The notes under the pieces are model-generated. The model had not been told where the DNA came from and searched no databases. It saw nothing but the letters and a program-made list of their open reading frames with translations. 64,000 nt of DNA from the NCBI GenBank assembly GCA_963674745.2, contig CAXXDV010000001.1, positions 2,272,001 through 2,336,000 on the forward strand. The letters run 5' to 3'. Of the stretch, positions 1,127-17,903 are shown one piece after another. Both the position numbers and the translations under genes were made by a program. This stretch comes from Desulfosudaceae bacterium. Its GTDB lineage: Bacteria > Desulfobacterota > Desulfobacteria > Desulfobacterales > Desulfosudaceae. Each line of letters starts with the position of its first letter. The stretch's first letter is position 1.

Positions 1127-1141
1127 TACGCAAAGGATATT

Positions 1142-1588
1142 ATGGACGAGAAAGAATTTTGGAATATCTTGGGAATGCTCAACTGGGATAAAACGGGTGA
1201 TGATGAAGCAGTCGTTGAGCCAGTTGTAAGCTATCTATCCAACCAATCGGACGAAGATATATTCCAATTTGAAGAGTTGCTCGCTCAAAAGCTATATGCG
1301 CTTGATACAAAAGCACATGCTAAAGAAATTGGTGAGGACGCATACATAAATGATGATCAATATTTTTCAGTTGATTGTTTTTTATATGCACGGTGTGTAG
1401 TCGTCGCAAACGGTAAGGAATTGTTCGAAGATGCTCTAAACAATCCATCAGAATTTCCTAAAGATATGGAGTTCGAAGCTATATTGTACGTTGCTCAAGA
1501 TGCTTATGAACGAAAAAATGGGAAAAAATGGAATTATGTATCCCCCACCAGTTATGAAACATTTAAAAATGTTGGTGGTTGGGAATAA
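1142..1588 (+). CDS. DUF4240-like protein (cassette 1)
   Basis: MDEKEFWNIL...FLYARCVVVANG resembles DUF4240; ATG follows AAGGA. Confidence 0.75.
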   Translation: MDEKEFWNILGMLNWDKTGDDEAVVEPVVSYLSNQSDEDIFQFEELLAQKLYALDTKAHAKEIGEDAYINDDQYFSVDCFLYARCVVVANGKELFEDALNNPSEFPKDMEFEAILYVAQDAYERKNGKKWNYVSPTSYETFKNVGGWE

Positions 1589-1590
1589 GC

Positions 1591-1714
1591 GTATAACAAC
1601 GCCACTCACACTGACTCGCAGGGGCGGGCTGTTTTTGTATTTGCGTAGTTTGGTGTTAAACTCACTTTAGCGAAGTCCGCAACCCCTGCTCGCCGGTGGT
1701 GGCGGACGTTATGC
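1591..1714 (+). repeat. attC site (family A, 124 bp)
   Basis: GTATAAC ... GCAGGGG/CCCCTGC arms ... GTTATGC. Confidence 0.88.
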
Positions 1715-1724
1715 GTCATAAGAA

Positions 1725-2315
1725 ATGATCATAATCAATAAAACCACTTTAAGTTTAATTCTCTGCCTGCTCTTATTATTGATTGGCTTTGGTTGCCTAC
1801 CCAAAGCATCGTATCATATGGAAGGTTATGAAGTTAAACCTGACAGATCAGAACATGGAACAGTTGAATTATATTGCAGAATTGTCTGTACACATTCCGG
1901 ATCATCAAGTTTAGTTGCAGGACACAGTGTATATGGAGCGCCTTATAAGTTAGAAGTTGAAGCGAGGACTTACGATAATAGATGGGAAGATTTGACAATC
2001 CGAAAAATTAATATTGCGCTTAAAGACAAAACTATCAAAATATTGGAGGGGTCTTTGAGCGACCAAGTTTTCCAATTTAATCGAAGCCCTTCAAGGCATG
2101 ATCCGCACGAAAATGAACACAAAGAAATTGTATATGAAACGGAAGCCCAATTTCCAATTGAGTTGACGTGGAATAAAGATAAAACTGCAGAAATCACGGT
2201 TCTGTTTAGCCTGACCAGTAAAGGTGAAACATTAAATGGCGTTCATCACTGCAAAGTAGATGCATATGAAATAAATCGTGAATCATCAATGTGGGATGCT
2301 ATGATGGGAATATAA
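1725..2315 (+). CDS. putative lipoprotein (cassette 2)
   Basis: Hydrophobic signal ending FGC; ORF fills the cassette. Confidence 0.7.
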   Translation: MIIINKTTLSLILCLLLLLIGFGCLPKASYHMEGYEVKPDRSEHGTVELYCRIVCTHSGSSSLVAGHSVYGAPYKLEVEARTYDNRWEDLTIRKINIALKDKTIKILEGSLSDQVFQFNRSPSRHDPHENEHKEIVYETEAQFPIELTWNKDKTAEITVLFSLTSKGETLNGVHHCKVDAYEINRESSMWDAMMGI

Positions 2316-2329
2316 CCCAATAGTAAAAC

Positions 2330-2455
2330 GCATAACAAGCCAGCCCAGCAGGATCGCCAGGGCAGGCTTTGTTGGGTAACCGGGGGAAGTGAAAATCTTT
2401 AAACTATAAGTCAGTCGGTGGAAGCCCTGGCGCCCTCTGGCTGAAGACGTTATAA
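2330..2455 (+). repeat. attC site (family B, 126 bp)
   Basis: GCATAAC ... GCCAGGGC/GCCCTGGC ... GTTATAA. Confidence 0.9.
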
Positions 2456-2460
2456 ACATT

Positions 2461-2961
2461 ATGCAAAATGTCTTTGTAATAACTGTAGTTGCTTTTTTTC
2501 TCGATGTAATTCTTTCTGCCACTTGGAATTCAACATATTTCCTGTTTGGAGTGCTTGCTTATAAAAAATCATATCGTATTAAAGGCAAGACCCTTGATGA
2601 TCTACCTAACAATATAAGAAAGGATGGTGATCATATCACTTGGGCAAGGTATAAGATTAAGCAAGTAGATAACAGGACATTTCTTTTAAGAAAAAATTTA
2701 TGGTATTTCGGTTTCAGCTTTTCAATGCCAATCATTCGATGGAGAATCAAAGTTCATGACAATGGACAATATTTTAGCTTAACGGCTTTGTATCAATTCT
2801 ACCCAATAGTCCTTCTCTTAGGAATAGGAACAATGTCAGTTCCAGCATTTATCACCATTGTATCCATATTTGTGGCCTTCTTCATATTGAGAACCAAGCT
2901 TGGAGTTGAACCTTTTCATAATGCAGAAGTTGAAAAAATTTGTGGTTTTATAAGAAATTAA
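2461..2961 (+). CDS. hypothetical membrane protein (cassette 3)
   Basis: ORF fills the cassette; hydrophobic segments. Confidence 0.7.
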   Translation: MQNVFVITVVAFFLDVILSATWNSTYFLFGVLAYKKSYRIKGKTLDDLPNNIRKDGDHITWARYKIKQVDNRTFLLRKNLWYFGFSFSMPIIRWRIKVHDNGQYFSLTALYQFYPIVLLLGIGTMSVPAFITIVSIFVAFFILRTKLGVEPFHNAEVEKICGFIRN

Positions 2962-2969
2962 AAAATAGT

Positions 2970-3091
2970 TTATAACAATTCAGCCCAGTAGGATCGCCAG
3001 GGCAGGCTTTGTTGGGCAACTGAGGGAAGTGAGCAGTAATCATCTATAATTAAGTCGGTGGGAACCCTGGCTCCCTCTGGCTGAAGACGTT
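2970..3091 (+). repeat. attC site (family B), R' interrupted by a MITE
   Basis: TTATAAC at 2970, family-B body, GTT at 3089-3091; the core resumes as GTTATGT at 3308. Confidence 0.88.
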
Positions 3092-3307
3092 GAGGCTGTA
3101 GAAAAAGTAAAATTTGAGTAAAACATAGGGTTTTGCCGCCAATTTTTGAAAACCTGAAAGTTATATAAGATTTTGTATGATCTCTGTGAAGCCATCTAAA
3201 ATAGATGGTTTGCAAGGATTTTATGTTTTAGTATAAAATATATTCTACGAAGGTGTTTTTCTGAAAAAAGATAAAATTTATCGAAAATAGACTTTTCCTA
3301 CAGACTC
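3092..3307. mobile_element. 216-bp MITE with 17-bp terminal inverted repeats
   Basis: GAGGCTGTAGAAAAAGT ... ACTTTTCCTACAGACTC (2 mismatches), flanked by GTT on both sides. Confidence 0.82.
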
Positions 3308-3344
3308 GTTATGTGCCGGATTAAAATGTGTTGAGACCTTCTAA

Positions 3345-3524
3345 ATGATATTTCGTGTATTAAAATACATTGCTTCTGAAATGCTTGAGTGGATTATATG
3401 CATAGCTCTTATTGTCACTCTAATGCTAGCTTTCCGTTATTCATATTTTTGGATTTTATTTTCTGTTTTGCTGGTAGGAGTTGTATATTACATTTTGCGA
3501 AAAAAACCCGACGTCAAAATATAG
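3345..3524 (+). CDS. 59-aa small membrane protein (cassette 4; not in ORF track)
   Basis: Manual translation: MIFRVLKYIASEMLEWIICIALIVTLMLAFRYSYFWILFSVLLVGVVYYILRKKPDVKI. Confidence 0.55.
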   Translation: MIFRVLKYIASEMLEWIICIALIVTLMLAFRYSYFWILFSVLLVGVVYYILRKKPDVKI

Positions 3525-3602
3525 ATATAGGGAATAAAAATAATCAGAACATAAGAAAGTTTGAAAAATAAAAAATTATAATTTACCAAAATAAAAACAA
3601 GC

Positions 3603-3726
3603 ACATAACAACACCATGCACTTGACTCGCAGGGGCGGGCTGTTTTTCAAACGTCGCGGTTCGGTGTTAACGTGGCTTTGCAATAGTCACTTTTCCCCTG
3701 CTCCCAAGTGACGGTGGACGTTATCT
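3603..3726 (+). repeat. attC site (family A, 124 bp)
   Basis: ACATAAC ... GTTATCT; similar to 1591 and 12717. Confidence 0.9.
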
Positions 3727-3744
3727 TTTAGAAGCATCGAAAAT

Positions 3745-4389
3745 ATGAAGATAAAATTTGTCGGTATAGTTTTAATTGTAATTGGGTTCACAATCCCATT
3801 TGTCTTAAAGGAAATTGTACCGACCTTCATGTATGCCGCGATATTATCGCAAATTTGTTTTTGGTTCGGCCTCTATACAATCCTTACCCCTATTCATCCT
3901 AATAGCATTTACACACCATATCTTCGGTGGGCGCGATATGGTGTTTTATTGAATTTTGGGCTGAGTTTTTTTGCAATAGCATTTGGTTATATGTTTTTAT
4001 ACTTTGGTCTTGATAAAATATTTGGTGTCTTTTTAATACGTTTGCTCTTTTTCTTAACAAACCCCATTCAATCCACTTTTGATTTTTTCGCTCCCAATCC
4101 TATGGTGCTACAGCCTGACGAATCTTTCATTGGAACAATAAGCTTTATTAGGGCGTTGCTAATTGAGTTCTTCAATATATTATTCTTTTGTTGCGTGGGT
4201 GTTTTAGCCAAAATAATTAAAGAAAAGATAACAAGGCCGCGCAATGGATCGCCAGGGCACCCGGCTTTTGAACATTCGGGGGTAAACGAATATAAACCAT
4301 CTTTAAGGCAAGTCAGTGGAAGCCCTGGCTCCCATTGGCGGCCGCCGTTCGGCAAGCCTATAAATATTGTACAAGTGTCAAAGGTATAA
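3745..4389 (+). CDS. multi-TM membrane protein (cassette 5), reads through its attC
   Basis: Several TM segments; no stop before R'' at 4226. Confidence 0.7.
   Translation: MKIKFVGIVLIVIGFTIPFVLKEIVPTFMYAAILSQICFWFGLYTILTPIHPNSIYTPYLRWARYGVLLNFGLSFFAIAFGYMFLYFGLDKIFGVFLIRLLFFLTNPIQSTFDFFAPNPMVLQPDESFIGTISFIRALLIEFFNILFFCCVGVLAKIIKEKITRPRNGSPGHPAFEHSGVNEYKPSLRQVSGSPGSHWRPPFGKPINIVQVSKV
4226..4353 (+). repeat. attC site (family B, 128 bp)
   Basis: AGATAAC ... GTTCGGC. Confidence 0.9.
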
Positions 4390-4413
4390 TTAATTTTAAT
4401 CAATAATTCCACT

Positions 4414-5007
4414 ATGAAAGTGAAACGATATTGTATAGTATTATTTAGATTTGCACTCCTTAATTTATTTGGATTAGTCTTAATCTTTTATGTGCCACTT
4501 GAGCTTTGGTACTTATCGTGGCCAAAAGTAAAAGCGGAGATTATTAAATCTGTGCATGAGTATGATTGCTACCCGCCGAACTCACCTAAATGTACTCCAA
4601 AAGCAACAATAGTATACAAATATGATATTATTGGGAAAAGTTACACATGTAATAATTATTCTCTCCATGGAGTATATAAGCCTTCGTCAATAATCCATTC
4701 GTTCAAAACACAACAGATTCTAGTAGAGCGATTATTAAATAATTACCCGGTCAATAGCAGCATTACAGTCTATTACAACAAAAACAAACCCCATCAGGCC
4801 GCAATCAACCCAAATATGTCAATGGGTGAGTGGCTGTATATTATAGTATGGACATTTATTGGTGGAATAGTTGTTCGCTCATGGACTATGAAAAATAAAG
4901 AACATCTTTCTCTGACTTATGATTTTAAACTGTTTATTACCTGTGTTATTTTACTTTTATTAGGTTCGATTATCGGAAATGCAATCATTGTGCTCCTAAC
5001 GAAATAA
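4414..5007 (+). CDS. DUF3592-like membrane protein (cassette 6)
   Basis: TM, then SWPKVKAEI...ITVYYNKNKPHQA, then TM. Confidence 0.65.
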   Translation: MKVKRYCIVLFRFALLNLFGLVLIFYVPLELWYLSWPKVKAEIIKSVHEYDCYPPNSPKCTPKATIVYKYDIIGKSYTCNNYSLHGVYKPSSIIHSFKTQQILVERLLNNYPVNSSITVYYNKNKPHQAAINPNMSMGEWLYIIVWTFIGGIVVRSWTMKNKEHLSLTYDFKLFITCVILLLLGSIIGNAIIVLLTK

Positions 5008-5013
5008 AAAGAT

Positions 5014-5137
5014 GCCGAACCACACGTTGGTAACGACCGCAAGGGGCGGTCGATTTTGGCACTTACCAAATAATTTAAAAAACGTGTCTTCGGCGGCGGA
5101 CCGTTCCCCTTGCGGCCCCACACCGTGGACGTTCGGC
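5014..5137 (+). repeat. attC site (A-like variant, 124 bp)
   Basis: GCCGAAC ... CCGCAAGGGG/CCCCTTGCGG ... GTTCGGC. Confidence 0.85.
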
Positions 5138-5148
5138 CGACACATAAT

Positions 5149-5532
5149 ATGCAACCATTTACATCACAAGGTAGAAAATTACGATTGGCGCTAATGCCAA
5201 TTTCATATTTTATTGCCTTCGCGACAATATATATTATGTTGATCTGCCTTGCTAAAATTGAAAACTCAAGTATCAAAGGTCTTCTTCAAACAGATAATTT
5301 ATGGCCGCTCGCGATTATCCTCCCGTGTTTTATCTTTGGGAAAATTCTGGGGCTTATGGCTATAAATGGCATTGCATATTTAATTCCCCATTTGCGTAAT
5401 GTTTTTGAGAATGAAGTAGCTGAAACAGGTCGTAATAATTTTTTCCAGGCAATGAAGGGACTTAGTATCGCTCTTGCCATATCGTTAATCATTACTGTGT
5501 TAGGAGCTATTTTATTCCTCCAATATAAATAA
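5149..5532 (+). CDS. hypothetical membrane protein (cassette 7)
   Basis: First ATG after R'; 3 TM segments. Confidence 0.7.
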   Translation: MQPFTSQGRKLRLALMPISYFIAFATIYIMLICLAKIENSSIKGLLQTDNLWPLAIILPCFIFGKILGLMAINGIAYLIPHLRNVFENEVAETGRNNFFQAMKGLSIALAISLIITVLGAILFLQYK

Positions 5533-5537
5533 TTATG

Positions 5538-5666
5538 GCCGAACAAGGCAGCTCAAGAGGATCGCCAGGGCATTCGGCTTTTGAACATTCGGGGGGAAAT
5601 AAACATTAACCGTCTTTAAGGCAAGTCTGTGGGAGCCCTGGCGCCCTTTGGCTGCCGCCGTTATGT
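5538..5666 (+). repeat. attC site (family B, 129 bp)
   Basis: GCCGAAC ... GTTATGT. Confidence 0.9.
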
Positions 5667-5676
5667 TTCAAAAGGC

Positions 5677-6189
5677 ATGAGAAAAAATAATTTCCAGGCT
5701 CTATTATTCTTTGTTGGCATGATTTTCATGTTTTTGCTTTGTTCATGCCAGTTTTCTGAAAACAGGCATCTCAAACGAGAGGTAAAAAGAAATGAATTGA
5801 TTGGTACATGGATAGCAACGCCATTTGCGATAAAATGTTTACAATGGTCAGGTTTTAAGAATCACCTTGCTACAAACGATCATCAGTTGGTTTTAAATGA
5901 GAATGGATCATGCAGATACAAATCATTTCAAAATTTTTTTATTATCTCAGGTTCAACTCCCAAATATCTTGATGTCGATGATTGTAAGTGGGAACTTATC
6001 AGCAAAACCGAACACCAACAACAGTATATAACTATCACCCTATCATCGTCACCTGAGGGAAGCGGAGGCCCTTATTTTTATTTCGACGAAAAAGACAAAA
6101 AATTGATCCTGTGGCAATATTGTAGTGATCCAGATCAGTGGAAATATATGGAATTTTTTAAGGTAGATTCAAAAAACAAAAAAACATAA
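5677..6189 (+). CDS. putative lipoprotein (cassette 8)
   Basis: MRKNN...LLCSC lipobox-like signal. Confidence 0.7.
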   Translation: MRKNNFQALLFFVGMIFMFLLCSCQFSENRHLKREVKRNELIGTWIATPFAIKCLQWSGFKNHLATNDHQLVLNENGSCRYKSFQNFFIISGSTPKYLDVDDCKWELISKTEHQQQYITITLSSSPEGSGGPYFYFDEKDKKLILWQYCSDPDQWKYMEFFKVDSKNKKT

Positions 6190-6311
6190 CCATGCCGCCC
6201 AAAGGATCGCCAGGGCAGTCGGATTTTGAACAGTCGGGGGGAGACGAACATTAACCATCTTTAAGGCAAGTCAGTGGAAGCCCTGGCTCCCATTGGCGGC
6301 CGCCGTTAAGT
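6184..6311 (+). repeat. attC site (family B, 128 bp)
   Basis: ACATAAC ... GTTAAGT. Confidence 0.9.
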
Positions 6312-6324
6312 GCATATAAAACAT

Positions 6325-6936
6325 ATGTCAAAATGGTATATTTTGCCCGGAATGGGCGCAACTTCAGCGATGTATGATTCGCTTAAGCCCGAAATTGATT
6401 TTGAGGTCAACTTTTTAGATTGGCCTGAATATAAGGGTGAAACAACCTACATGGAGGTTGCAGCACGGATTATAACTGAAAACGATATATCAGACGGAGA
6501 TATTGTTGGAGGATCATCCCTGGGGGGAATGGTCGCTCTCGAAATTGCACAGATATTGCGGCCAAGAACAACTGTGCTTCTTGGGAGTGCTATAAATAAG
6601 CGAGAAGTTCAGAGTGTCCTTTCTATCTTGTCCCCTTTGGCAGCTGTAACCCCAATATCATTGATTCAATTTTTGGTGGGGAAACACAAAAGTTTAATAG
6701 CGAAAATGTTTTCCAATTGCGATTCTGGATTTATTCGGGCCATGTGCTTGCATTTACGTTCATGGCCAGGCTATTCCGGCCCGAATGAGAACATAATTCG
6801 GCTTCATGGCCGGAAAGACCATGTAATTCCGTGTCCAGCAACTGGCGCAGAGATTATTGATGGTGCTGGCCATTTATTGGCAATGACACATCCTAAAGAA
6901 ACTGGGCAGTTTTTAAAAAATGTACACAGCACTTAA
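6325..6936 (+). CDS. alpha/beta hydrolase (cassette 9)
   Basis: LPGMGA, GSSLGG nucleophile elbow, HGRKD and GAGH motifs. Confidence 0.85.
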   Translation: MSKWYILPGMGATSAMYDSLKPEIDFEVNFLDWPEYKGETTYMEVAARIITENDISDGDIVGGSSLGGMVALEIAQILRPRTTVLLGSAINKREVQSVLSILSPLAAVTPISLIQFLVGKHKSLIAKMFSNCDSGFIRAMCLHLRSWPGYSGPNENIIRLHGRKDHVIPCPATGAEIIDGAGHLLAMTHPKETGQFLKNVHST

Positions 6937-7059
6937 CCATTCAGCGCAATAGGATCGCCAGGGCACCCGGGTTTTGAACAGCCATGCTGAGTTGAAATTT
7001 TAACCATCTTTAAGTCAGTCGGAGGAAGCCCTGGCGCCCTTTGGCTGAAGACGTTCGGC
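6931..7059 (+). repeat. attC site (family B, 129 bp)
   Basis: ACTTAAC ... GTTCGGC. Confidence 0.9.
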
Positions 7060-7079
7060 TTCTGATTGGAAATATCAAA

Positions 7080-7562
7080 ATGAAAAAGATATTTTTTTTA
7101 ATCATTCTCATTTTAGTGCTTAGTGATGCAAATGCGACTGAGATCGTTGACGTAAATACAAGTATCCTTGGAAAGGACGTAAACACCCCTCTTGAATTAT
7201 TCTCGGTGGGAGAAAATAATAAAAGTACCCTTCTTTATCCCACCAACATTCAATTAGATATTGAGAACAATTTATGCAAAGCTGTATCCATGCTTTTCCC
7301 AGACAATAAAATCAAACTTGATGAAATGAGAAAGATCATAAATACAAAGTATCCCGATACCGAATATATTGTAGGAGATAAATTTTGGGCTTGGCGGGTT
7401 GAAAATGGACATTTTACAATAACAATGTTCCCCCAAGAAGATTGTATCGAGGATTATAATTACATTAGAGTTGTTTACTTGATGTGGGTTAATGAAGATA
7501 TTGATGTTATAGTAGAAAGAGGCGAAAAAATTCTAAATTATCTACAGAAAAATATAGAGTAA
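7080..7562 (+). CDS. putative secreted protein (cassette 10)
   Basis: MKKIFFLIILILVLSDANA signal peptide. Confidence 0.7.
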   Translation: MKKIFFLIILILVLSDANATEIVDVNTSILGKDVNTPLELFSVGENNKSTLLYPTNIQLDIENNLCKAVSMLFPDNKIKLDEMRKIINTKYPDTEYIVGDKFWAWRVENGHFTITMFPQEDCIEDYNYIRVVYLMWVNEDIDVIVERGEKILNYLQKNIE

Positions 7563-7690
7563 GCCGAACCAAGCAGCGCAAGAGGATCGCCAGGGCATTC
7601 GGCTTTTGAACACTCAGGGGAAACTGAACATAAACCATCTATAAGACAGTCAGAGGATGCCCTGGCGCCCTTTGGCTGCAGACGTTCTGT
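7563..7690 (+). repeat. attC site (family B, 128 bp)
   Basis: GCCGAAC ... GTTCTGT. Confidence 0.9.
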
Positions 7691-7718
7691 GCAAAAAAAT
7701 TATCGGGGATAATTAACT

Positions 7719-8312
7719 GTGAATGAGAGTATTTGTTGGTATGAGATAAAACGAAAGACTATATTCTCGTATTTAATCCCGATACTTTTGACTGTATTCT
7801 GGCTAGGTTTTATAACGTTACTAAGCCAGTGCTCGGAAAAAGAAAAAAAATATGACAAGGAATTATGGCAACCCTGGCTTGAGATTAAGAATGAAAAAAT
7901 ACAATTTATCGAATTACACCCTATTCTCACAACTGGATACTACACCATCTCAAATGTGGCTAGGATTGAAGATAAACAATTGATTTCAAAAATTAAAGAG
8001 AATTTAAACAGAAGACTTATGACAAATGAAGATAAGATCGGTTACCATTGGTTCTCAAGTAAACGTCTTCGAATAACAGCTTATACAGAAAAGAAAGAAT
8101 TTTCATTTATCTTATTTTTTCATGGGGAATTTCCAAGTGTTCAATATCAAATGTTGGTGCCCACAAACGAAAAGCATAGCGCATTCAGGCCGCAGCAGTG
8201 CCCCGGTTTCTACGCTAGCGGTGAAGGATGGAGAAGTGCTAAATTGTATAATGTAATAAATGAATTTATCAGTCACTCAAAAAAGGTTCATTGGAACAAA
8301 TATGCTATTTAA
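7719..8312 (+). CDS. membrane-anchored hypothetical protein (cassette 11)
   Basis: N-terminal TM; ORF fills the cassette. Confidence 0.65.
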   Translation: MNESICWYEIKRKTIFSYLIPILLTVFWLGFITLLSQCSEKEKKYDKELWQPWLEIKNEKIQFIELHPILTTGYYTISNVARIEDKQLISKIKENLNRRLMTNEDKIGYHWFSSKRLRITAYTEKKEFSFILFFHGEFPSVQYQMLVPTNEKHSAFRPQQCPGFYASGEGWRSAKLYNVINEFISHSKKVHWNKYAI

Positions 8313-8373
8313 CTTAAACAATGTTCAATGAAACGCAAATAGATAGTGAAAATAATTCATTGAAGATAAAAGC

Positions 8374-8502
8374 ACAGAACAAGGCATCGCAAGAGGATCG
8401 CCAGGGCATTCGGGTTTTTGAACGGCTTGGGGAAATTGAACATTAACTTTCTTTAAGACAGTCAGAGGAAGCCTTGGCGCCCTTTGGCTGCCGCCGTTAT
8501 GT
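8374..8502 (+). repeat. attC site (family B, 129 bp)
   Basis: ACAGAAC ... GTTATGT. Confidence 0.9.
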
Positions 8503-8508
8503 CGAAAT

Positions 8509-9093: not shown

Positions 9094-9094
9094 G

Positions 9095-10405: not shown

Positions 10406-11306
10406 ACCTTTCTAAAATCAACATGGATTGTATTTATCAGCTCATTTAAGACAGTCAGGCTGTCCTGCTCCGTTATATCGCTCAGATGCGTATAACGTGC
10501 TGTTGTGGAGGGACTGGCATGGCCAAGCAGGGCCTGGATGTGACGGAGGCTTAAGCCGCGTTCAAGCAGGTGGGTGGCAAAACTGTGACGCAGGGAGTGA
10601 ATGGATACTTTTTTTTAATGCCGCATTCGGCGACGACCACTTTCATGGCTCTCTGACAGCCGCCTTTATCCATAAAGTTGGTGGCCGCCCGGATGGTCTC
10701 TAAAGACCCCTTGCAATTGGGAAATAACAAATTAGGATGACGATGCTTACGCCAAAGCTCCCGCAGGCCCGTCAAAGTCAGGTCCGGCAATGGCAGCATT
10801 CGGTCCTTATGACCTTTACCCCGGCGGATATGGACCTTTTTGCGCTCAGCATCAATGTCCCCGATCTGAAGGGACAACGTCTCTTCCAGACGCAATCCCA
10901 TGGAATAGGTTGTCAGCAGAAATACCCGGTAACGCAATTTCTTGGTTTTGCCGATGATCCGTTCAACCTCGGAAACGGTAAGAATGTCCGGTATGGTTTT
11001 GACTTTCGGCGGTTTGACGATCTTGATCCATTCCCAGTCCTTTCCGAGCACATACCGCCAGAAGAACTGCAAGCCGTTACGGTCAACCCTGACCGTGCTC
11101 CAGGAATGGCTATCCACCAGCTGAGAGAAATAACCTTCCAATTGTTCCGGACGCAAATGGTCGGGACAACAATCAAAATGGTTACGAATGCGGCGGACTG
11201 AACGGGCATAGAGATCAATGGTCCTCGGACTCATACCCTGAAGCTTGAGCAACTCCAGGTGCCTCTCATAAAGCCGGTTGAAACGTTTTACTTCCGAATC
11301 GTTCAT
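10402..11306 (-). CDS. tyrosine recombinase completed by a -1 frameshift at 10608-10616
   Basis: Frame 0 has a SAM-like N-terminus, GLRLEE and GKGHKDR. The -1 frame after A8G gives [15 protein letters not shown]...[13 protein letters not shown]...RKV*, whose stop overlaps the tnp ATG (ATGA). Confidence 0.88.
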
Positions 11307-11360
11307 GGTATACTCCTTTCATTGGGGGTGCCCGTAATTGAGCACGTATTGGAGTATACC
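11307..11360 (-). promoter_or_regulatory. 5'-UTR hairpin sequestering the recombinase RBS
   Basis: Perfect 10-bp inverted repeat GGTATACTCC/GGAGTATACC; one arm contains the GGAG SD and abuts the ATG. Confidence 0.55.
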
Positions 11361-11393
11361 TTGTTTTTTATTAATCCGCCGCGTAGCGGCTTC

Positions 11394-11521
11394 GTTCAAC
11401 CATTCAGCGCAAGAGGATCGCCAGGGCACTCGGGCTTTGAACAGCCGTACTGAATTGAACATTAACCGACTTTAAGTCAGTCAGAGAAGGCCCTGGCGCC
11501 CTTTGGCTGAAGACGTTATGA
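11394..11521 (+). repeat. attC site (family B); R'' now supplied by the element end
   Basis: GTTCAAC + family-B body + GTTATGA. Confidence 0.88.
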
Positions 11522-11534
11522 AATATAGCCTGAT

Positions 11535-12707
11535 ATGAAAGCCATCAAACCATTATCAATCATGCTTTTTTGTCTTATTGTTGTTTCCTGCGCCCCCAAT
11601 TCTTCTAATATAAGGGCAACAGATAATCAGATGGGCATGGATAACCATTCTGTTAATTATAGTTCGGGTGATATGTTAAAAATTGAAAATTGTACCAAAG
11701 AAGTCAATACAGAATATGACCTAATAGAGCAGGCGTTTGATTGTTATGAAGAGTTCGATCAAAAGACAATCAATGACATTACTTCCAACTACTCCATCTC
11801 TATTTTTATCAATACGTTACAAGACGATAATTACGAGTATCGTGCAGGAGCTGCAAGGATTCTTGGATTATTGAAATATTCAAAATCAGTTCCAGATTTA
11901 TTATACATGGCAATAAACGACCCAAATCCATATTGTAAGGTAAGCGCAACTTTAGCCCTCTATCAAATTGATGAGGAGCCGGCAAAAAACGATGCTTTTT
12001 CTAATCTGATAAAGGACTTTACAAATCCAGAAACAGAATCGGTTTACAGAGGCATCATCGCAGCCCTCATGGGGGATATAGGTGATCAAAATGCAACCCC
12101 TTATTTACTCACAGCTTTAAAAGATCCCAAAACAGATCCATTTGTACTCGATTTTGTAATCTTCGCTTTGGGAAAAATTAAAGGTGAAAATATACCTGCT
12201 GCACTTAATGAATTCATTTTAAGGCATGATATTGAACCATATATTCGAAAAGATGCCATAATGGCGTTAGGCTCAATTGGTGATGATGATTCAATCTCGT
12301 TCTTATCTGATATCTTGAATTCAAAAGATTACAATTATTCTATTAGGGCAGATGCGGCTTCAGCATTAGGTTACGAATCAAACCATAGCCAAAAGGCCAT
12401 TTCAGCCTTAATTAATGCCACAAAGGATGAAAATAAAGGTGTCCGTTTTTTTGCTGTTTGTGCCTTGGGAAAAATACCTGATGAGCGTGCAACGAAGGGT
12501 TTAATTAATGCTCTGAACGATGATTGTGACCGTGTTCGAGTTACGGCAGTCAATTTTTTAGGATTAACCGGTGATGAATCATCTATACCAGCGTTAACAA
12601 GGTTATCAAAAGATGATGCGATAATTTATGGTCAGCCAATTAAAGAACACGTTCAAAAAGCGATTGAGCAAATTAAGGAAAAAGCTATAAAGGATAAATC
12701 AAAATAA
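11535..12707 (+). CDS. HEAT-repeat lipoprotein (cassette 13)
   Basis: VVSC lipobox; repeated VR..A..ALG motifs. Confidence 0.85.
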   Translation: MKAIKPLSIMLFCLIVVSCAPNSSNIRATDNQMGMDNHSVNYSSGDMLKIENCTKEVNTEYDLIEQAFDCYEEFDQKTINDITSNYSISIFINTLQDDNYEYRAGAARILGLLKYSKSVPDLLYMAINDPNPYCKVSATLALYQIDEEPAKNDAFSNLIKDFTNPETESVYRGIIAALMGDIGDQNATPYLLTALKDPKTDPFVLDFVIFALGKIKGENIPAALNEFILRHDIEPYIRKDAIMALGSIGDDDSISFLSDILNSKDYNYSIRADAASALGYESNHSQKAISALINATKDENKGVRFFAVCALGKIPDERATKGLINALNDDCDRVRVTAVNFLGLTGDESSIPALTRLSKDDAIIYGQPIKEHVQKAIEQIKEKAIKDKSK

Positions 12708-12716
12708 CAGAAAATT

Positions 12717-12839
12717 TCATAACCACACCATGCACTTGACTCGCAGGGGCGTTCTGCTTTTTCAGTATCGCAGTTCGGTGTTAACGTGGCTTCGTAAACG
12801 TCACAGTTCCCTGCTCCCAAGTGACGGTGGACGTTGTGC
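12717..12839 (+). repeat. attC site (family A, 123 bp)
   Basis: TCATAAC ... GTTGTGC. Confidence 0.9.
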
Positions 12840-12859
12840 ATCTATAACATTATATAAAT

Positions 12860-14131
12860 ATGGAACCTATATTTCACAGTATAATCTTATGGGTTAAGAT
12901 TTTAAGTATACCAATAGCTTCTATTGTTTATAGATATGTTAAAAAAAAGCCATTCTTTTACAAAGAAAACCCAGATGCAAATTATCAGGAAAAATGGCGT
13001 TCTGGGCATGCATGCAATATTTTTCAAATGTTTGGTGGCGCACGAAATTGTCTTTGGTTTTCGATCCTAAAAGATGAAATAATTATCTGTCCGCATTTTC
13101 CTTTCAACTTATTATTTTTGCCTGAAATATGGGGATGTGAGCATCACATTAAAGGGAAAGAAATTATATCGATTGATGAGAACCCGAGATTAGGTGGAAT
13201 AGTAATCTGCTTTAAAAAAGGGATTGGAGTCAAAAAATTTAGAATTTATCCCAAGCACAAAGAAATTTTTGTGGGTTTCGCTAAAGGGATATTAGCTAAT
13301 CACAAAAAATCGATATCCTCCTCGCTTGTCTTGGACGAAGAAAAGCATCTCTGCCAACCGCCACACACTAAAAAGCGCTATGTACCGAAAAGTATATACC
13401 AATTAATGTTTATAATATTTTTTTTCGGAGTTATTGGTCCAATTTGGTGGTTTGTTATTCCAAATCTTTACAAAAAAGATGGCCTTTACACTGATTTAGA
13501 GCAAAGGAATGTTAAGGCGGTTGAAAAAAGAATTGATAGTCAAGAGGAAGTGATTAATCGAAGATTTTATGGATTAAATGCCACACCATTACATATTGCC
13601 GCTGGTTTGGGTGATATTGAAATGATGGATATGTTATTGCGAAAAGGTGCTAACATTGAAGTGAAGGGTTATAGGAACCTATGTGAACCGATCCATTTAG
13701 CGGCAGGCAAGGGACACATAAAAGCTGTTGAATTTTTATTAAAAAATGGCGCACATATTGATGCCAAAGATAGGGATAACGAAACCCCATTACATGATGC
13801 CGCTTATAATAATCAAGCCGAAATGATAGGTTATCTTGTTAAACATGGAGCAAACATTAATGCAAAAAGCAACTGTTATCATCTTACGCCACTTGAAGAA
13901 GCTGTTAAATTTGAACGGGCTATAGCAGTGCGTGCTTTGCTCGAAAATGGTGCCAAAGCTGATCTTGATGCTTTAATATTAAGAGTTCAAAGAGACATGG
14001 AAGGTGCGCCTTTAGCGGATGAAACACGAAAAAAAGAATGGACAGATGTATTAGAAATATTAAGGGAATTCAAGTCAAGGAATGCACAACCAGTAAATTC
14101 AGCCGACGCAAAAAACCGCGCGGCTGATTAG
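12860..14131 (+). CDS. membrane protein with C-terminal ankyrin repeats (cassette 14)
   Basis: TPLHIAA, PIHLAA, TPLHDAA repeats after a TM; stop lies inside the attC. Confidence 0.85.
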   Translation: MEPIFHSIILWVKILSIPIASIVYRYVKKKPFFYKENPDANYQEKWRSGHACNIFQMFGGARNCLWFSILKDEIIICPHFPFNLLFLPEIWGCEHHIKGKEIISIDENPRLGGIVICFKKGIGVKKFRIYPKHKEIFVGFAKGILANHKKSISSSLVLDEEKHLCQPPHTKKRYVPKSIYQLMFIIFFFGVIGPIWWFVIPNLYKKDGLYTDLEQRNVKAVEKRIDSQEEVINRRFYGLNATPLHIAAGLGDIEMMDMLLRKGANIEVKGYRNLCEPIHLAAGKGHIKAVEFLLKNGAHIDAKDRDNETPLHDAAYNNQAEMIGYLVKHGANINAKSNCYHLTPLEEAVKFERAIAVRALLENGAKADLDALILRVQRDMEGAPLADETRKKEWTDVLEILREFKSRNAQPVNSADAKNRAAD

Positions 14132-14142
14132 CGGCGTTAGGC
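14084..14142 (+). repeat. short 59-bp attC site
   Basis: GCACAAC ... TCAGCCG/CGGCTGA ... GTTAGGC. Confidence 0.85.
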
Positions 14143-14152
14143 GCATGAATAT

Positions 14153-14593
14153 TTGATTCGAAGCTACATATTAAATGGCCTTATCGCATCAGTGGGTGCC
14201 GCATTTATAACGGCTGCTGCCAATATGCTCAATACTATTTGGCATGCTTATCCACCCGACAGATCTGGAATGTTCATCGGATTTGCAGTTTTCTTTGGTG
14301 TTGGTCTATGGTGCCTTTATGGTTCGATAAGCAATATTCGAACACGAATCCGGAACCGCAACACCTCAGAGACTTCCCCAAAAATGTTGTGGCCAGAGCG
14401 CATAGCAGCTATTCTTTGCGGTAGCACAATTCTTGGGGTTGTTCTTTTGTATATAAACTTCCTTCTTGAGCCTTTCGGCACACAAAGAGGCTCCTTAGTT
14501 TTTCATTATATCGCTCTGGGGCTATTATTTAGCGGTATCGTTGGTTCTATCGTATTGCCGATTATTAAAGCTTTAAGACGATCGAGTGCATGA
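14153..14593 (+). CDS. 4-TM hypothetical protein (cassette 15)
   Basis: TTG start; ORF fills the cassette. Confidence 0.65.
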   Translation: MIRSYILNGLIASVGAAFITAAANMLNTIWHAYPPDRSGMFIGFAVFFGVGLWCLYGSISNIRTRIRNRNTSETSPKMLWPERIAAILCGSTILGVVLLYINFLLEPFGTQRGSLVFHYIALGLLFSGIVGSIVLPIIKALRRSSA

Positions 14594-14603
14594 TGACGAC
14601 GGC

Positions 14604-14732
14604 GCCTAACAAGGCATCGCAAGAGGATCGCCAGGGCATTCGGCTTTTGAACATTCGGCGGAAACTGAACATTAACCGTCTTTAAGACAAGTCATTGGAA
14701 GCCCTGGCGCCCTTTGGCTGCCGCCGTTAGGC
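14604..14732 (+). repeat. attC site (family B, 129 bp)
   Basis: GCCTAAC ... GTTAGGC. Confidence 0.9.
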
Positions 14733-14743
14733 AAAAATATATT

Positions 14744-15286
14744 ATGAAGAGGACTAAGCTATTACTTGATGTTCCGTATTCCATAGATAAAACCATTAAA
14801 GTCCTTGAAGACAATATTGATCGCCCCAAAATGCTTACTTTAATTTCAAAGAAAAATCATAAATGCCCATTCATTGGAAAAATTAAAGGGAACAGATTCA
14901 TTTTTCGTGAACAAAGCATATGGGGATACTCTGGCCTATATGACAGGAATAATTTGCATCCATACTTTGAAGGACATATTGTACCAACCGGGGAATTCTG
15001 CCAAATTTCCGGTAAATTTACCAATGGCCCGGTAGCTGGTTGTTTGATGCCAGTACTCTTAACCTGGTTCGCTTTCCTATGTGGAATATCTTCTATTGCA
15101 ATTGTTCATAACTGGTTTACTGGCGCTGACGGACCAGCTCCAGTCATTTTGATTTTCACACTTCCTGTATTTTTGTTATCAATTTATGGTTTATTTTTTT
15201 CAAATCCTTCACGAAAGCGAGACGTAGAAAAATATATAGAAACCTTTGAAAAATTATTGAATGCAAAAATAAATGAGACTGCCTAA
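14744..15286 (+). CDS. hypothetical membrane protein (cassette 16)
   Basis: First ATG after R'; two C-terminal TMs. Confidence 0.7.
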   Translation: MKRTKLLLDVPYSIDKTIKVLEDNIDRPKMLTLISKKNHKCPFIGKIKGNRFIFREQSIWGYSGLYDRNNLHPYFEGHIVPTGEFCQISGKFTNGPVAGCLMPVLLTWFAFLCGISSIAIVHNWFTGADGPAPVILIFTLPVFLLSIYGLFFSNPSRKRDVEKYIETFEKLLNAKINETA

Positions 15287-15541
15287 CACATATGAGCCGC
15301 CCGGAGTCAATGGGGAATAAAAATTTTTTAGGGACTGAGTTTTTACTCCCCCTTTCCGCAGTTAAAACAGAACGGACTCACTGTCTTTAATTCAAAGCGC
15401 GTAGTAAAATAGCTGCTACAAAGGCCGCGCAAAGGATCGCCAGGGCATTCGGCTTTTGAACATTCGGGGGAAATTGAATATTAAACATCTTTAAGGCAAG
15501 TCGGTGGAAGCCCTGGCTCCCATTGGCGGCCGCCGTTCGGT
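15281..15541 (+). repeat. attC site (family B) interrupted by a 133-bp insert
   Basis: GCCTAAC[insert]AAGGCCGCGCAAAGGATCGCC ... GTTCGGT; 128 bp without the insert. Confidence 0.85.
15288..15420 (-). mobile_element. 133-bp insert, probable IS110/IS1111-type right-end remnant
   Basis: Insertion immediately after R''; the minus strand ends TTGACTCCGGGCGGCTCATATGT (terminal -35 box). Confidence 0.5.
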
Positions 15542-15550
15542 GACAAAATT

Positions 15551-16390
15551 ATGCTTAACACCCGCACATGGCATTGGCTTTGCGTTAGCGCTTTCATCAT
15601 GTTTCCGGGCGTGGTCATGATTTGGTTACTGCCAGAAAGTTCACTCCTCAGTTGGTTGGCACCGGCGATGATTTTGTGGGGCATTGTTGTTGGCATTTTG
15701 GGGGCGATTCAGGGAATCCTGCTCGCGTTTGGGCGTTTGAAAATGGGTTGTCCACGATGTGATTCGAAGAGCAACGTGATCGGAGGGAATCGAGATGGGA
15801 TGTATTTGAGCTGCCCTGAGTGCGGTGATCTCCGAATCAAGCTTGGAAGCATCTTTGGCTTGGAAGTGATTCGTTCCGGTAGTGAAGAGGATGACCTTTC
15901 CGATTATAAGGAAGAATCTGCATCGCTACTTCTCACACCCAAGAGACACCCTTTATTGTTCATAGTCCTTTATCTCCCAGTGGTAGCATCGATTATTGTT
16001 GCTACGATCATACACGAGTTCACGGTTTTCTATCTCCTGATTCCTGGCGTGTGGTGTTATGGAGTTGGATGCTTCATCATCGAAGGCATTTACAAAGGTA
16101 GTATGAGCGACAACCACGGAACAGCCTTACGATCGAAGTCGCCCGTTCGATTTTGGGGCAAGATTGGAATTTGGTTTCTCTTTTATGTTTTCGCCACGGC
16201 TTTTCCCATTGGATTCGCCATGCAAGAGCACAGCAAGGCCGACACCGAACAATTCTGTTCAAGTAACAGCCAGGGCCGAGCCGCTTTGGCAGATGGTTGT
16301 AAAATTGAAGGTGTGTCCTTTTTATTGAAGTCAGAGAAAGCCTGTCTGTCCCTGACTGAAGACGTTATGCATAAAAATGAAGTGATATGA
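15551..16390 (+). CDS. membrane protein with a zinc ribbon (cassette 17), reads through attC
   Basis: CPRC...CPEC between TM pairs; stop overlaps the next ATG. Confidence 0.7.
   Translation: MLNTRTWHWLCVSAFIMFPGVVMIWLLPESSLLSWLAPAMILWGIVVGILGAIQGILLAFGRLKMGCPRCDSKSNVIGGNRDGMYLSCPECGDLRIKLGSIFGLEVIRSGSEEDDLSDYKEESASLLLTPKRHPLLFIVLYLPVVASIIVATIIHEFTVFYLLIPGVWCYGVGCFIIEGIYKGSMSDNHGTALRSKSPVRFWGKIGIWFLFYVFATAFPIGFAMQEHSKADTEQFCSSNSQGRAALADGCKIEGVSFLLKSEKACLSLTEDVMHKNEVI
16244..16370 (+). repeat. attC site (divergent B-like, 127 bp)
   Basis: ACCGAAC ... GTTATGC. Confidence 0.8.
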
Positions 16391-17061
16391 ATTTATCCTT
16401 AAAGCAAAAATTTCTTCTGATTGGACTAATAATATTATTCTTTCGAGTCTTCTCAGCCCTTTTAACATTCGGACACGTCCAGCTATTCGGGACTCCATTT
16501 CAAATTGATTTTCTTTTCAATGTATATTCACCTCTTGTCGCATGTGCGCTATCTGTTATTATCTCCATACAAATATTTAATAAATTTTCTGATATAAATA
16601 AACTTTTTGTCATAATGGTTTTGGTTGTCGCATTTTTACCGATGTCTTTTAATTATGAGATCGCCTTTGATGAAGGCACTGACGCTATTCCTGTCGATGA
16701 ATTAGGTGCTGTTAAGCCCGCGTCATTCGGTTTTCATTTGATCGACGATGAACAATCGATACAATCGACCATTTTGACTAACAAGCATGTTGATCGGGCG
16801 GAAGCTGTTTCTGATAAAACTTTCGGGGTTAAAATCTTTTTTACACCTCAAGGAGAAGCGGAATTCCCAAAGTCTATCCGAATCAATGTTGGGGAAAAGC
16901 TTGGTTTTTCTATTAATGGCGAATTGCTCACCAGCACCATAGAAATGGTAGAAAGGGATGATGCTGATAATATAGAAGAAGCCCCGTATATTGTATTGCC
17001 GTTATGCGTTGATATTTTTGGGGCAAACAGAATTGCTGCGGAAATTATGAAGAACAAATAA
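16387..17061 (+). CDS. membrane protein with a SecDF P1-head-like C-terminal domain (cassette 18)
   Basis: 3 TMs, then VKIFFTPQG...NVGEKLGFSINGELL. Confidence 0.55.
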   Translation: MNLSLKQKFLLIGLIILFFRVFSALLTFGHVQLFGTPFQIDFLFNVYSPLVACALSVIISIQIFNKFSDINKLFVIMVLVVAFLPMSFNYEIAFDEGTDAIPVDELGAVKPASFGFHLIDDEQSIQSTILTNKHVDRAEAVSDKTFGVKIFFTPQGEAEFPKSIRINVGEKLGFSINGELLTSTIEMVERDDADNIEEAPYIVLPLCVDIFGANRIAAEIMKNK

Positions 17062-17069
17062 TTAATAAT

Positions 17070-17182
17070 GCATAAGAAGCTCAAGTGGACAGCCAGGGCA
17101 CTCGGGTTTTGAAAAATCGAGGGGTTTGAACAACCCAAATCATTAACTAAGTCAGTGGAAGCTCTGGCTGCCGCCGTTCTGT
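17070..17182 (+). repeat. degenerate attC site (family B, 113 bp)
   Basis: R'' reads GCATAAG (not AAC); right arm lacks about 10 bp; R' GTTCTGT. Confidence 0.7.
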
Positions 17183-17206
17183 TTCAATACCCCCACCAAA
17201 AATATG

Positions 17207-17235
17207 TTGACAAAAGGCAGACAATAGCATATATT
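17207..17235 (+). promoter_or_regulatory. sigma70 promoter of the TA cassette
   Basis: TTGACA-17 bp-TATATT. Confidence 0.75.
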
Positions 17236-17241
17236 CATGCC

Positions 17242-17511
17242 ATGAAATATTTGAACTGGAACTCTGATAAAAACGAAATTTTAAAAAAAGAACGTGGGAT
17301 TTCCTTTGAAGAAATAGCCTATTTGATTGAGTCTGGACAGATAATCGGAATAGAGGAAAATCCGGGGTACCCTGGTCAAAAAATGTATGTTTTGGAAATT
17401 GACAATTATGCCATCATGGTTCCTTACGTGGAAGACGACGCGGAAATTTTTTTGAAAACGGCTTTTCCAAGCCGTAAATACACAAAAAAATACGGTTTGA
17501 AGGGGGAATAA
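17242..17511 (+). CDS. BrnT-like type II toxin (cassette 19)
   Basis: WNSDKNEILKKERGISFEE...FLKTAFPSRK. Confidence 0.8.
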   Translation: MKYLNWNSDKNEILKKERGISFEEIAYLIESGQIIGIEENPGYPGQKMYVLEIDNYAIMVPYVEDDAEIFLKTAFPSRKYTKKYGLKGE

Positions 17512-17807
17512 TGAATAGAATCAAAAAAAAGTCTTTTAAACCAATCGATCAGGAAGAGAAAGACCTGATGGAATCAATTGAACGTGACGAGTGGCGACCT
17601 GTTAAAAACTTTGATCGAGAAAGAAAGAAAGCTATAGAGGCTGCTCGAAACACTCTGAAAAAAGACAAACGAATAAATCTTCGTCTTTCTCAAAAAGATT
17701 ACCATCAAATACAAATAAGAGCACTTGAAGAAGGTATACCCTATCAAACGCTGATTTCAAGTATTGTGCATAAATTCCTGAACGGTTCTTTAACACCTAA
17801 ATCATGA
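17511..17807 (+). CDS. CopG/RHH-type antitoxin
   Basis: KDKRINLRLS...EGIPYQTLI; TAATG overlap with the toxin. Confidence 0.8.
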   Translation: MNRIKKKSFKPIDQEEKDLMESIERDEWRPVKNFDRERKKAIEAARNTLKKDKRINLRLSQKDYHQIQIRALEEGIPYQTLISSIVHKFLNGSLTPKS

Positions 17808-17813
17808 AAGAAA

Positions 17814-17903
17814 ACAGAACCAAGCGGTGTCGCTGATGTCCACGGCTTGCATTCTTCGCTACGCTCAGGCAAGCCGCGCCACAGCTAACCGCAGACGTTA
17901 GGC
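17814..17903 (+). repeat. terminal attC site (90 bp)
   Basis: ACAGAAC ... GCGGT/ACCGC ... GTTAGGC. Confidence 0.8.

Follow-up and report, generated by a model that had tools for sequence, protein, structure and literature searches.

What draws four mobile elements of unrelated chemistry into a single integron cassette array, each of them to an attC recombination site? The question is raised by a 64,000-nucleotide stretch of the genome of a Desulfosudaceae bacterium (GCA_963674745.2, contig CAXXDV010000001.1; G000:C1:2272001-2336000), here called the window, whose first part (1-17903; positions without a contig are those of the window) is the distal ~18 kb of such an array. Short open reading frames (ORFs) follow one another there on the plus strand, and a 110-130-bp repeat stands after each. 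The repeats have the build of attC sites, with an RYYYAAC-like box (R'') at the start and a GTT box (R') at the end, and there is one ORF per unit. Lodged in them are a group II intron, a miniature inverted-repeat transposable element (MITE), an IS91-family element with a tyrosine recombinase gene (IS91/Int) and the end fragment of an insertion sequence (IS) of the IS110/IS1111 type. We consider it very probable that each of the four came to its fixed R-box nucleotide by site recognition, in an array that has an attI-like head and no integrase of its own.

Four elements occupy fixed nucleotides of attC sites

A sequence-only reading of the window had proposed an intron at position 4 of R', a MITE at the GTT of R', an Int/IS91 element at the AAC of R'' and an IS1111-like insert after an R''. 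All four positions held. The 5' exon of the intron ends in ..GACGTTA and the intron itself at 1126; the MITE lies at 3092-3307 with GTT on either side; the IS91/Int element occupies 9102-11400, directly after R'' ACATAAC; and the IS1111-like insert is at 15288-15419, directly after R'' GCCTAAC, although it proved to be only a 132-bp terminal fragment. No cassette ORF in the window is cut by any of the four elements, as that reading had also claimed.

To extend this to the genome, attC sites were searched for with a profile made from 17 window sites. It gave 249 matches in 14 clusters, and the arrays of at least four sites (n=10) span 180,981 bp, or 3.26% of the genome. The genome holds 20 copies of the four elements (2 of the intron, 10 of the MITE, 4 of IS91/Int and 4 of the IS1111-type element). 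All 20 lie in these arrays, and each type is found at one nucleotide position of attC.

An IS91-family element lands directly after R''

The IS91/Int element is 2299 bp long and lies on the minus strand. Its hairpin end (9102 to ~9150) is beside R'', and its far end, ..GCGGCTTCGTTCAAC, is at 11386-11400. It carries a Y2/HUH transposase gene (9350-10405, minus strand; NF033538, 388 bits against a cut-off of 125, with matches also to PF04986 and PF14319) and a tyrosine recombinase gene (10551-11306, minus strand), the catalytic C terminus of which is in the -1 frame after A_AAA_AAG (~10612-10622). In all four copies in the genome the native R'' is on one side and the element's own far end, followed by the attC remainder, on the other, and this R'' pairs, over 3-4 of the 4 outer bases, with the R' that lies past the element.

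We then looked at relatives. Homologues of the transposase (E <= 1e-40) were found in 39 of 201 genomes from the order (the present genome counted). The closest of these relatives conserve both ends of the element, and 9 of 10 have AAC in front of the hairpin end. IS91 targets GTTC or CTTG, beside its origin end. Here the flank is not one of these but YAAC, in all four copies of this genome, in 9 of 10 relatives and in both plasmid copies whose end was found. On plasmids, transposases of ~43% identity are annotated beside a 'site-specific integrase'. One of them, on the Escherichia coli IncC plasmid NZ_LT985243.1 (7750-15793; 43% transposase identity), belongs to an IS91 and integrase relative that sits in the aadA1 attC, between GTCTAAC and AATTCGTTCAAGCC and antisense to the cassettes. 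Its host is a class 1 integron (aadA2-cmlA1-aadA1 ... qacEdelta1-sul1), with the element between aadA1 and qacEdelta1. On a Photobacterium plasmid, a further relative follows CATAAC and is itself followed by attC-like sequence.

The split of the recombinase gene recurs. The A_AAA_AAG layout (A8 or A9, then G) was seen in 4 of 4 genome copies and in six relatives of 50-69% transposase identity (loci L147, L149, L150, L151, L153 and L154), and the recombinase is in frame in one relative (L156) and in the E. coli plasmid copy. The pattern suggests a programmed -1 frameshift, or else slippage during transcription, rather than a fault of the assembly.

Two observations on the relatives weigh against attC as the target of the whole family. 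Complementarity between R'' and R' was at the level of chance (best 0-3 of 4 bases, 8 loci), and strong attC-like folding was found in only 4 of 10 right flanks. Part of the IS91/Int family thus lies outside clear attC sites. For the copies described here, insertion would take place directly 3' of the AAC of R'', antisense to the cassettes, most likely by rolling-circle transfer into YAAC, which would replace the usual IS91 target tetranucleotide. The far end, GTTCAAC, sets a new R''-like box beside the attC remainder.

Alternatively, the tyrosine recombinase rather than the HUH transposase could place the element, through a circular form and the AAC of R''. The best NCBIfam match of the recombinase is indeed the integron-integrase model (89 bits, far below the cut-off of 265), and the junctions in this genome can equally be read as a duplication of AAC; the joined ends would read GTTC-AAC-GAAC. 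Against this, the hairpin end opens with different tetranucleotides in different relatives (GAAC, GAAT, AAAT, AGAT), so that the joined ends hold no conserved core site; the recombinase does not match model positions 180-249, which we take to be the rough place of the IntI-specific extra domain; and a full-length recombinase is reached only after the frameshift. We regard placement by the recombinase as unlikely, and placement by the HUH transposase as the better account.

A MITE of a probable IS1182-type lineage lands at the core GTT of R'

The MITE (3092-3307, plus strand, 216 bp) is bounded by 17-bp inverted repeats (GAGGCTGTAGAAAAAGT/GAGTCTGTAGGAAAAGT), and GTT is duplicated around it (3089-3091 and 3308-3310). 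Its ten copies in the genome, nine of them identical and one at 99%, are all at the R' GTT of an attC and in one orientation. They represent seven independent sites and three tandem copies, the latter within a run of four head-to-tail MITEs with a period of 219 bp and GTT between each (G000:C1:1492050-1492920). The run indicates that one attC core was hit several times.

Of 60 relatives, no more than three genomes, all from other families, matched the MITE in part, and in two of these the same repeats enclose an unrelated interior at an attC GTT. An inverted-repeat scan of one genome per species returned at least 124 stretches, from many phyla, where by our own estimate ~35 would be expected. 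Of the 127 ends listed, 112 are flanked by GTT (67) or AAC (45); 29 of the 67 listed GTT flanks read GTTRRRY, where ~4 would be expected, and 15 read GTTAGGC. Among the matches listed, the flank on the side of the attC body folds more strongly than the other one (median z -1.48 versus -0.52, p 0.0015), and the elements measure 98-576 bp, apart from a second, larger class of 1.76-1.84 kb. Five members of this class encode IS1182-type transposases of 509-539 aa, with DDE_Tnp_1_6 (PF13751) and DUF772 (PF05598) both above their cut-offs, and they have the same repeats and GTT/AAC flanks as the MITE. Judged by its ends and flanks, the MITE is probably a non-autonomous derivative of a widespread IS1182-type (DDE) lineage whose target is the attC core GTT. 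Elements of this lineage would insert at the R' core GTT and duplicate it; the attC would retain its GTT, and repeated insertions would give rise to tandem copies.

Several results pull the other way. The inverted-repeat search found no partner element with these repeats in the genome, and tblastn found no close transposase there, the best hits (25% identity) being IS1182 genes that lack the repeats. In the scan, 15 of the 127 listed ends have other flanks. An upstream R'' matches R' at three or more of the four outer bases in only 6 of the 19 complete elements listed (null 7%). The large members fall just short of the IS1182 model (NF033551, 268.3 bits against a cut-off of 270), and the orientation of the autonomous members varies, being one way in four genomes and the other way in one.

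The 216-bp unit might instead be a cassette without an ORF, running from TT.. to ..G and moved by IntI at the crossover between G and TT. Its boundaries do coincide with the IntI crossover point, it has the same orientation at the seven independent sites and in the three tandem copies, and ORF-less cassettes bearing promoters are described in part of PMC8876359. Yet no R''..R' attC belongs to the unit itself, and its 17-bp repeats are those of the 1.8-kb IS1182-family elements with GTT/AAC flanks. As it lacks an attC and has its ends in common with real ISs, the cassette idea fails; the MITE-like series of sizes among the matches listed speaks against it too, and we judge it quite improbable. 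Comparison of attI regions with joined MITE ends gave no convincing likeness. A promoter-like motif of the MITE, TTGCAA-18-TAAAAT, was considered and dropped, as such sites are not enriched (3 versus 2.6 in shuffles).

A group II intron finds R' by base pairing

The window opens inside the intron. Its last 1126 of 2003 bp are at 1-1126 (plus strand; full element G000:C1:2271124-2273126), and the first 877 bp precede the window. The intron encodes a reverse transcriptase (RT)/maturase of 458 aa that ends at 1026 (TIGR04416, 342 bits against a cut-off of 300). Domains D1-D4 of the ribozyme match RF02005 (111.2 bits against a cut-off of 49), and domains V-VI (~1052-1126) match RF00029 with 33.9 bits, below the gathering score of 40. 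The ribozyme part is ~630 nt long; class C group II ribozymes are shorter.

The insertion point is inside R' of the preceding B-type attC (family B, see below), between GACGTTA and TACGC, and the intron has the orientation of the cassettes. An identical second copy lies in the array beside intI at C3:2348261. Sequence exclusive to the two copies starts directly after ..GACGTTA, and the 37 nt before it are found in intron-free attC sites as well. Both copies are in cassette orientation, unlike the bottom-strand insertion of group IIC-attC introns.

In a search with the intron-encoded protein, matches at E <= 1e-80 came from 29 of 201 genomes from the order, counting the present one, and five close relatives were compared. 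They set the intron start at G(U/C)GCGCCAAGC and its end at ..GAY. The 5' exon ends in CGTTA in three of them, in CGTTG in one and in AATATG in the fifth; in two of the CGTTA/CGTTG relatives the 3' exon completes GTTAGGC or GTTAGCC. A hairpin loop in D1 reads UAACGU, which pairs with ACGTTA, in the intron and in all the CGTTA/CGTTG relatives. In the fifth relative, with its AATATG exon, the loop is altered to CAUAUU. This compensatory change of loop and exon, a covariation among relatives, shows that the intron locates R' by pairing between exon-binding site 1 (EBS1) and intron-binding site 1 (IBS1). The intron would reverse-splice into the top strand between R' positions 4 and 5 (after GTTA), with EBS1 UAACGU guiding it to ACGUUA. 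Since it lies in sense orientation, it could also splice out of cassette transcripts.

Two further loci show related introns in company. At G156:C1:794597-798940 (L188), a truncated second copy of the intron 5' end stands behind another ..GCGTTA, upstream of an intron relative, and genome G086 has at least four related introns in 55 kb (C2:4299847-4354565).

An IS110/IS1111-type element lands after R'' as well

The fourth element is represented in the window by the transposase-distal 132 bp of a 1617-bp element (15288-15419, minus strand), without a transposase gene. Two full 1617-bp copies are in other arrays. Each encodes a 374-aa IS110-family transposase, antisense to the cassettes (NF033542, 206 bits against a cut-off of 140), with a 484-nt non-coding region downstream of the gene. 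A second solo 132-bp fragment lies in an A-type attC (G000:C1:1481767-1481896) and has the same inner endpoint, ..GCTGCTAC. In the full IS this inner endpoint is followed by a near-repeat of the outer terminus (ACATATGAG versus ACACATATTGAG).

All four copies stand directly after YTAAC. Excerpts of the seekRNA paper (PMC11187229) describe a non-coding region downstream of the gene as the IS1111 layout, and excerpts of PMC3001079 describe an IS1111-attC group that inserts near the R'' end of attC, in antisense. As in that group, the IS110/IS1111-type element would be RNA-guided and would insert directly after R'', antisense to the cassettes. The match between a seekRNA and the target counts against this view, being 7 nt only, about what chance would give.

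Targeting rather than tolerance

The positions described above could in principle reflect survival instead of choice: elements would insert anywhere, and only the insertions in a dispensable, mostly silent array would persist. The arrays are indeed AT-rich accessory DNA (GC 35-45% in the first 18 kb of the window versus about 50% in the flanks and farther on), and ISs occur in 23% of complete integrons and in 12% of attC clusters that have no integron integrase (CALINs), according to part of Cury et al. Survivorship, however, would scatter insertions through spacers and ORFs, and each type is instead at one nucleotide in all its copies. Other orders and phyla show the same position again, and the four tandem MITEs are repeated hits on a single site. 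Tolerance as the explanation is thus very improbable. Nor is the genome as a whole closed to IS insertions, since 4 of its 7 IS110-family loci are outside arrays; its group II RT loci are in attC arrays in 4 of 4 cases.

Taken together, nucleotide-exact positions and their conservation in relatives argue for targeting and not for mere tolerance. The sequence-only reading had seen in the attC sites a shared safe harbour, to be given up if insertions proved to be random in relatives. Relatives instead keep the position, as seen in the covariation of the intron, in the GTT/AAC flanks of the IS1182-type elements and in the relative in the aadA1 attC. The safe harbour is hence sharpened to active targeting, with positions that are exact to the nucleotide and that in three of four cases are conserved in other genomes. 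The attC sites would act as a shared landing pad that spares the cassette ORFs, and this may let elements travel with cassettes.

An integron platform without its own integrase

The window array extends from C1:2266565 to C1:2289903 and has 27 attC sites, of which 25 were found by the profile (8 before the window and 17 within it) and two are outliers. Three integron integrase genes were found in the genome with TIGR02249 (cut-off 265), scoring 429, 416 and 415 bits. Each adjoins an array with these same repeats, and the strand is the expected one. This whole-genome search placed no intI beside the window array, and on the contig the closest one lies 154 kb away from where the window begins. 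An acyl-CoA synthetase gene borders the array on the left, and on the right follow tRNA-Val (18161-18235, minus strand), scpB and scpA. With Rfam at its gathering thresholds, this tRNA was the sole match in the window.

Ahead of the first cassette are 190 bp (G000:C1:2265472-2265665) that are 87% identical to the stretch from intI to the first cassette of the integron at C3:2348261. This attI-like region ends in ACTGTT and is rich in ATGGAAAA/TTTCCA repeats. The similarity begins directly after the stop codon of the acyl-CoA synthetase gene, and the head of the array has the look of one that lost intI by a clean excision. Two more arrays without intI start with copies of 79-83% identity (C3:367366-367549 and C1:958637-958733). 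With an attI-like head kept and no adjoining intI, the window array is an integron platform without its own integrase. Its head is attI-like by sequence, and the array, having two or more attC sites and lacking any intI within 150 kb, is a CALIN by definition; the rules of IntegronFinder would file it as such. Of the earlier description as a sedentary chromosomal integron, the chromosomal array with an attI-like head stands, and the missing adjoining intI does not fit. The array could be served in trans by the genome's three intI genes, which look intact and lie elsewhere. An integron integrase above the cut-off is present in 14 of 31 sampled genomes of the lineage, this one included, and the same-genus genome G002 has three.

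The attC calls rest on a self-built profile and on structure, which weighs against them. That the repeats are some other palindromic family and the array not integron-derived, as might be argued from this profile and from the lack of a match in Rfam, can nevertheless be dismissed as next to impossible, given three intI genes above the cut-off, each bordering with the expected strand on arrays of these repeats, the attI-like head, the RYYYAAC...GTTRRRY boxes at every site with one ORF per unit, and a cassette that follows an attI in one integron and an attC in another.

Other arrays of the genome hold additional elements. In the array at C3:1821284, three of them stand within G000:C3:1842727-1857071: a second group II intron, frameshifted and oriented like the cassettes; an RT/maturase gene, the third of the genome, which runs on the opposite strand (432 bits, one stop); and an IS110-type transposase gene in truncated form. 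A 170-aa cassette ORF is duplicated in the window array, ahead of the window (L009, 6714-7226 and 9308-9820). Contigs from four public runs are interrupted at the attC repeats; what they span, in other metagenomes, is single cassettes and the IS91 element. The sides of the contig joints are shorter than 31 letters, so nothing was inferred from them.

attC families and cassettes of the window

Nineteen attC sites were read from the sequence between 1591 and 17903, namely the 17 profile matches and two sites, of 59 and 90 bp, that escape the profile. Their R boxes are complementary, in 5-7 of 7 bases where R'' is correctly picked, and the bottom strands of 17 window sites form long hairpins with bulges, which the R boxes close. 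Most sites belong to two homogeneous families, as first noted from the sequence: family A (GCAGGGG/CCCCTGC) has 3 and family B (GCCAGGGC/GCCCTGGC) 13 of the 19, including two degenerate sites and two split by insertions. To these we add a third type (GCAAGGGG/CCCCTTGC), with one site in the window and 11 copies genome-wide.

All of the following features are on the plus strand. Behind the intron, the first cassette (1127-1714) consists of the rest of R' (TACG), a DUF4240 ORF (1142-1588) and a family A attC (1591-1714). Next come a family B attC at 2330-2455 (R'' GCATAAC, R' GTTATAA) and another at 2970-3091, which ends at the R' GTT (3089-3091) and has its R' remainder past the MITE (3308-3314). 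A family A attC (3603-3726) precedes a family B site (4226-4353) that is read through by the cassette ORF 3745-4389; this ORF crosses its own attC and stops 36 bp into the next cassette. The third-type attC is at 5014-5137 (R'' GCCGAAC, R' GTTCGGC).

The stretch 5538-8502 holds five B-type attC sites with their cassettes (5538-5666, 6184-6311, 6931-7059, 7563-7690 and 8374-8502), among them an alpha/beta hydrolase ORF (6310-6936). An ankyrin-repeat ORF (8509-9093) is followed by the native R'' ACATAAC of its attC (9095-9101), and the rest of this B-type site is past the IS91/Int element (11401-11521), where R' GTTATGA (11515-11521) pairs with that R''. A HEAT-repeat cassette (11535-12707) with a family A attC (12717-12839) and a second ankyrin cassette (12860-14131) with the 59-bp attC (14084-14142; R'' GCACAAC, R' GTTAGGC) lead to a family B attC at 14604-14732, whose R boxes GCCTAAC/GTTAGGC (14604/14726) are complementary at 7 of 7 bases. 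In the B-type attC split by the IS110/IS1111-type fragment, the native R'' GCCTAAC is at 15281-15287 and the rest at 15420-15541, with R' GTTCGGT at 15535-15541. Two degenerate B-type sites follow (16261-16370 and 17070-17182), the second with AAG in place of AAC in its R''. The array ends with a cassette (17155-17903) for a BrnT-like and CopG-like toxin-antitoxin pair, weak and in both members below the Pfam cut-offs, and with the 90-bp attC (17814-17903).

The two outlier sites had been taken for signs of imported cassettes. Being without a second copy in the genome, the 59-bp site agrees with this idea. The 90-bp type also stands at the distal end of two other arrays, just past their last profile-detected attC (C1:901481-901563 and C1:2099276-2099345), one of which is a complete integron, and once away from any array (C1:547707-547765). 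As it recurs at other array ends, it is not simply foreign. The toxin-antitoxin-like cassette ahead of it in the window is absent from those two arrays. The 59-bp attC has a core (14096-14139) that, in contigs from runs X1 and X3, shows many different flanks and a depth bin far above its neighbours; with its uniqueness in this genome, this suggests a type that is common in other members of the community.

Implications

In the literature we found no report of attC targeting by IS1182-type elements, IS91-type elements or MITEs, in a search that took in results on IS1182 with attC only in part and had ISfinder outside it. An IS91-like element, ISShvi3, is called 'adjacent to an attC site' in an excerpt of a Shewanella paper. 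Two of the four kinds of element, the IS1182-type/MITE and the IS91-type, have thus not been found reported at attC.

Integron arrays are usually seen as gene stores shaped by IntI alone. Here, four other machineries would read the same 7-bp boxes. Tentatively, and with slightly less than even confidence, we propose that attC is a convergent target of at least four enzyme classes (ribozyme/RT, DDE, HUH and RNA-guided DEDD), that 'IS1182-attC' and 'IS91/Int-attC' clades have gone unnoticed, and that integrons serve as transposon vehicles. If so, the 'IS1182-attC' clade would duplicate the core GTT and comprise a swarm of 98-576-bp MITEs from Nitrospirota to Gammaproteobacteria. The 'IS91/Int-attC' clade would land right after R'', bring along an R''-like end and be present in a clinical class 1 integron. 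Elements that enter a recombination site and do not destroy it could be carried along when IntI moves cassettes, which would make integrons vehicles of transposons too.

Were the pattern general, annotation pipelines would mis-call cassettes split by such elements, and insertions at R'' or R' could fuse, silence or re-promote cassettes and might be moved by IntI. The presence of the IS91/Int lineage in the aadA1 attC of an IncC plasmid integron bears on the rearrangement of resistance arrays. The intron would be an example from nature of an attC recognised through plain base pairing, and the IS1182 lineage one of a DDE transposase with a 3-bp, structure-associated target.

Comparison with known systems

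Like group IIC-attC introns (S.ma.I2 and relatives), the intron is a group II intron without an endonuclease domain in a GTT-type attC box. According to excerpts of PMC3001079 and PMC7923331, IIC-attC introns sit in the GTT-type box just past the attC hairpin, in integrons and CALINs, and enter the bottom strand, antisense to the cassettes, between TTGT and T. The present intron differs in being on the top strand, in sense, after GTTA and with an EBS1 pairing of 5-6 nt, which makes its lineage a mirror-image variant. As precedents, excerpts of PMC7923331 name one top-strand group IIC intron, in Enterobacter cloacae, and one IIB1 intron downstream of an attC.

The IS91/Int element resembles IS91 elements with an upstream tyrosine recombinase in its Y2/HUH transposase, zinc-binding N terminus and hairpin at the end downstream of the gene. 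With the plasmid elements annotated as 'IS91 family transposase' and 'site-specific integrase', it shares the absence of inverted repeats and the recombinase gene upstream. It departs from the IS91 family in its YAAC flank, which is the R'' of attC, and in a recombinase that in this branch requires a -1 frameshift. The MITE lineage has the DDE_Tnp_1_6 and DUF772 transposase, the terminal inverted repeats and the short target duplication of the IS1182 family and its MITEs; a fixed target, GTT(RRRY), and 17-bp repeats that are kept across phyla while interiors vary set it apart.

The IS110/IS1111-type element is like the IS1111-attC group (ISPa21, ISPst6, ISKpn4) in its DEDD transposase, downstream non-coding region, R''-end position and antisense orientation. 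The likeness is one of place, orientation and layout, the window copy being a 132-bp end fragment, and a fragment with the same inner end stands alone in a second attC of another family. The array as a whole compares with CALINs and sedentary chromosomal integrons in being long and on one strand, with cassettes mostly of unknown function, homogeneous attC families and a toxin-antitoxin-like cassette. What distinguishes it is an attI-like head without intI, a feature that it shares with at least two other intI-less arrays of the same genome.

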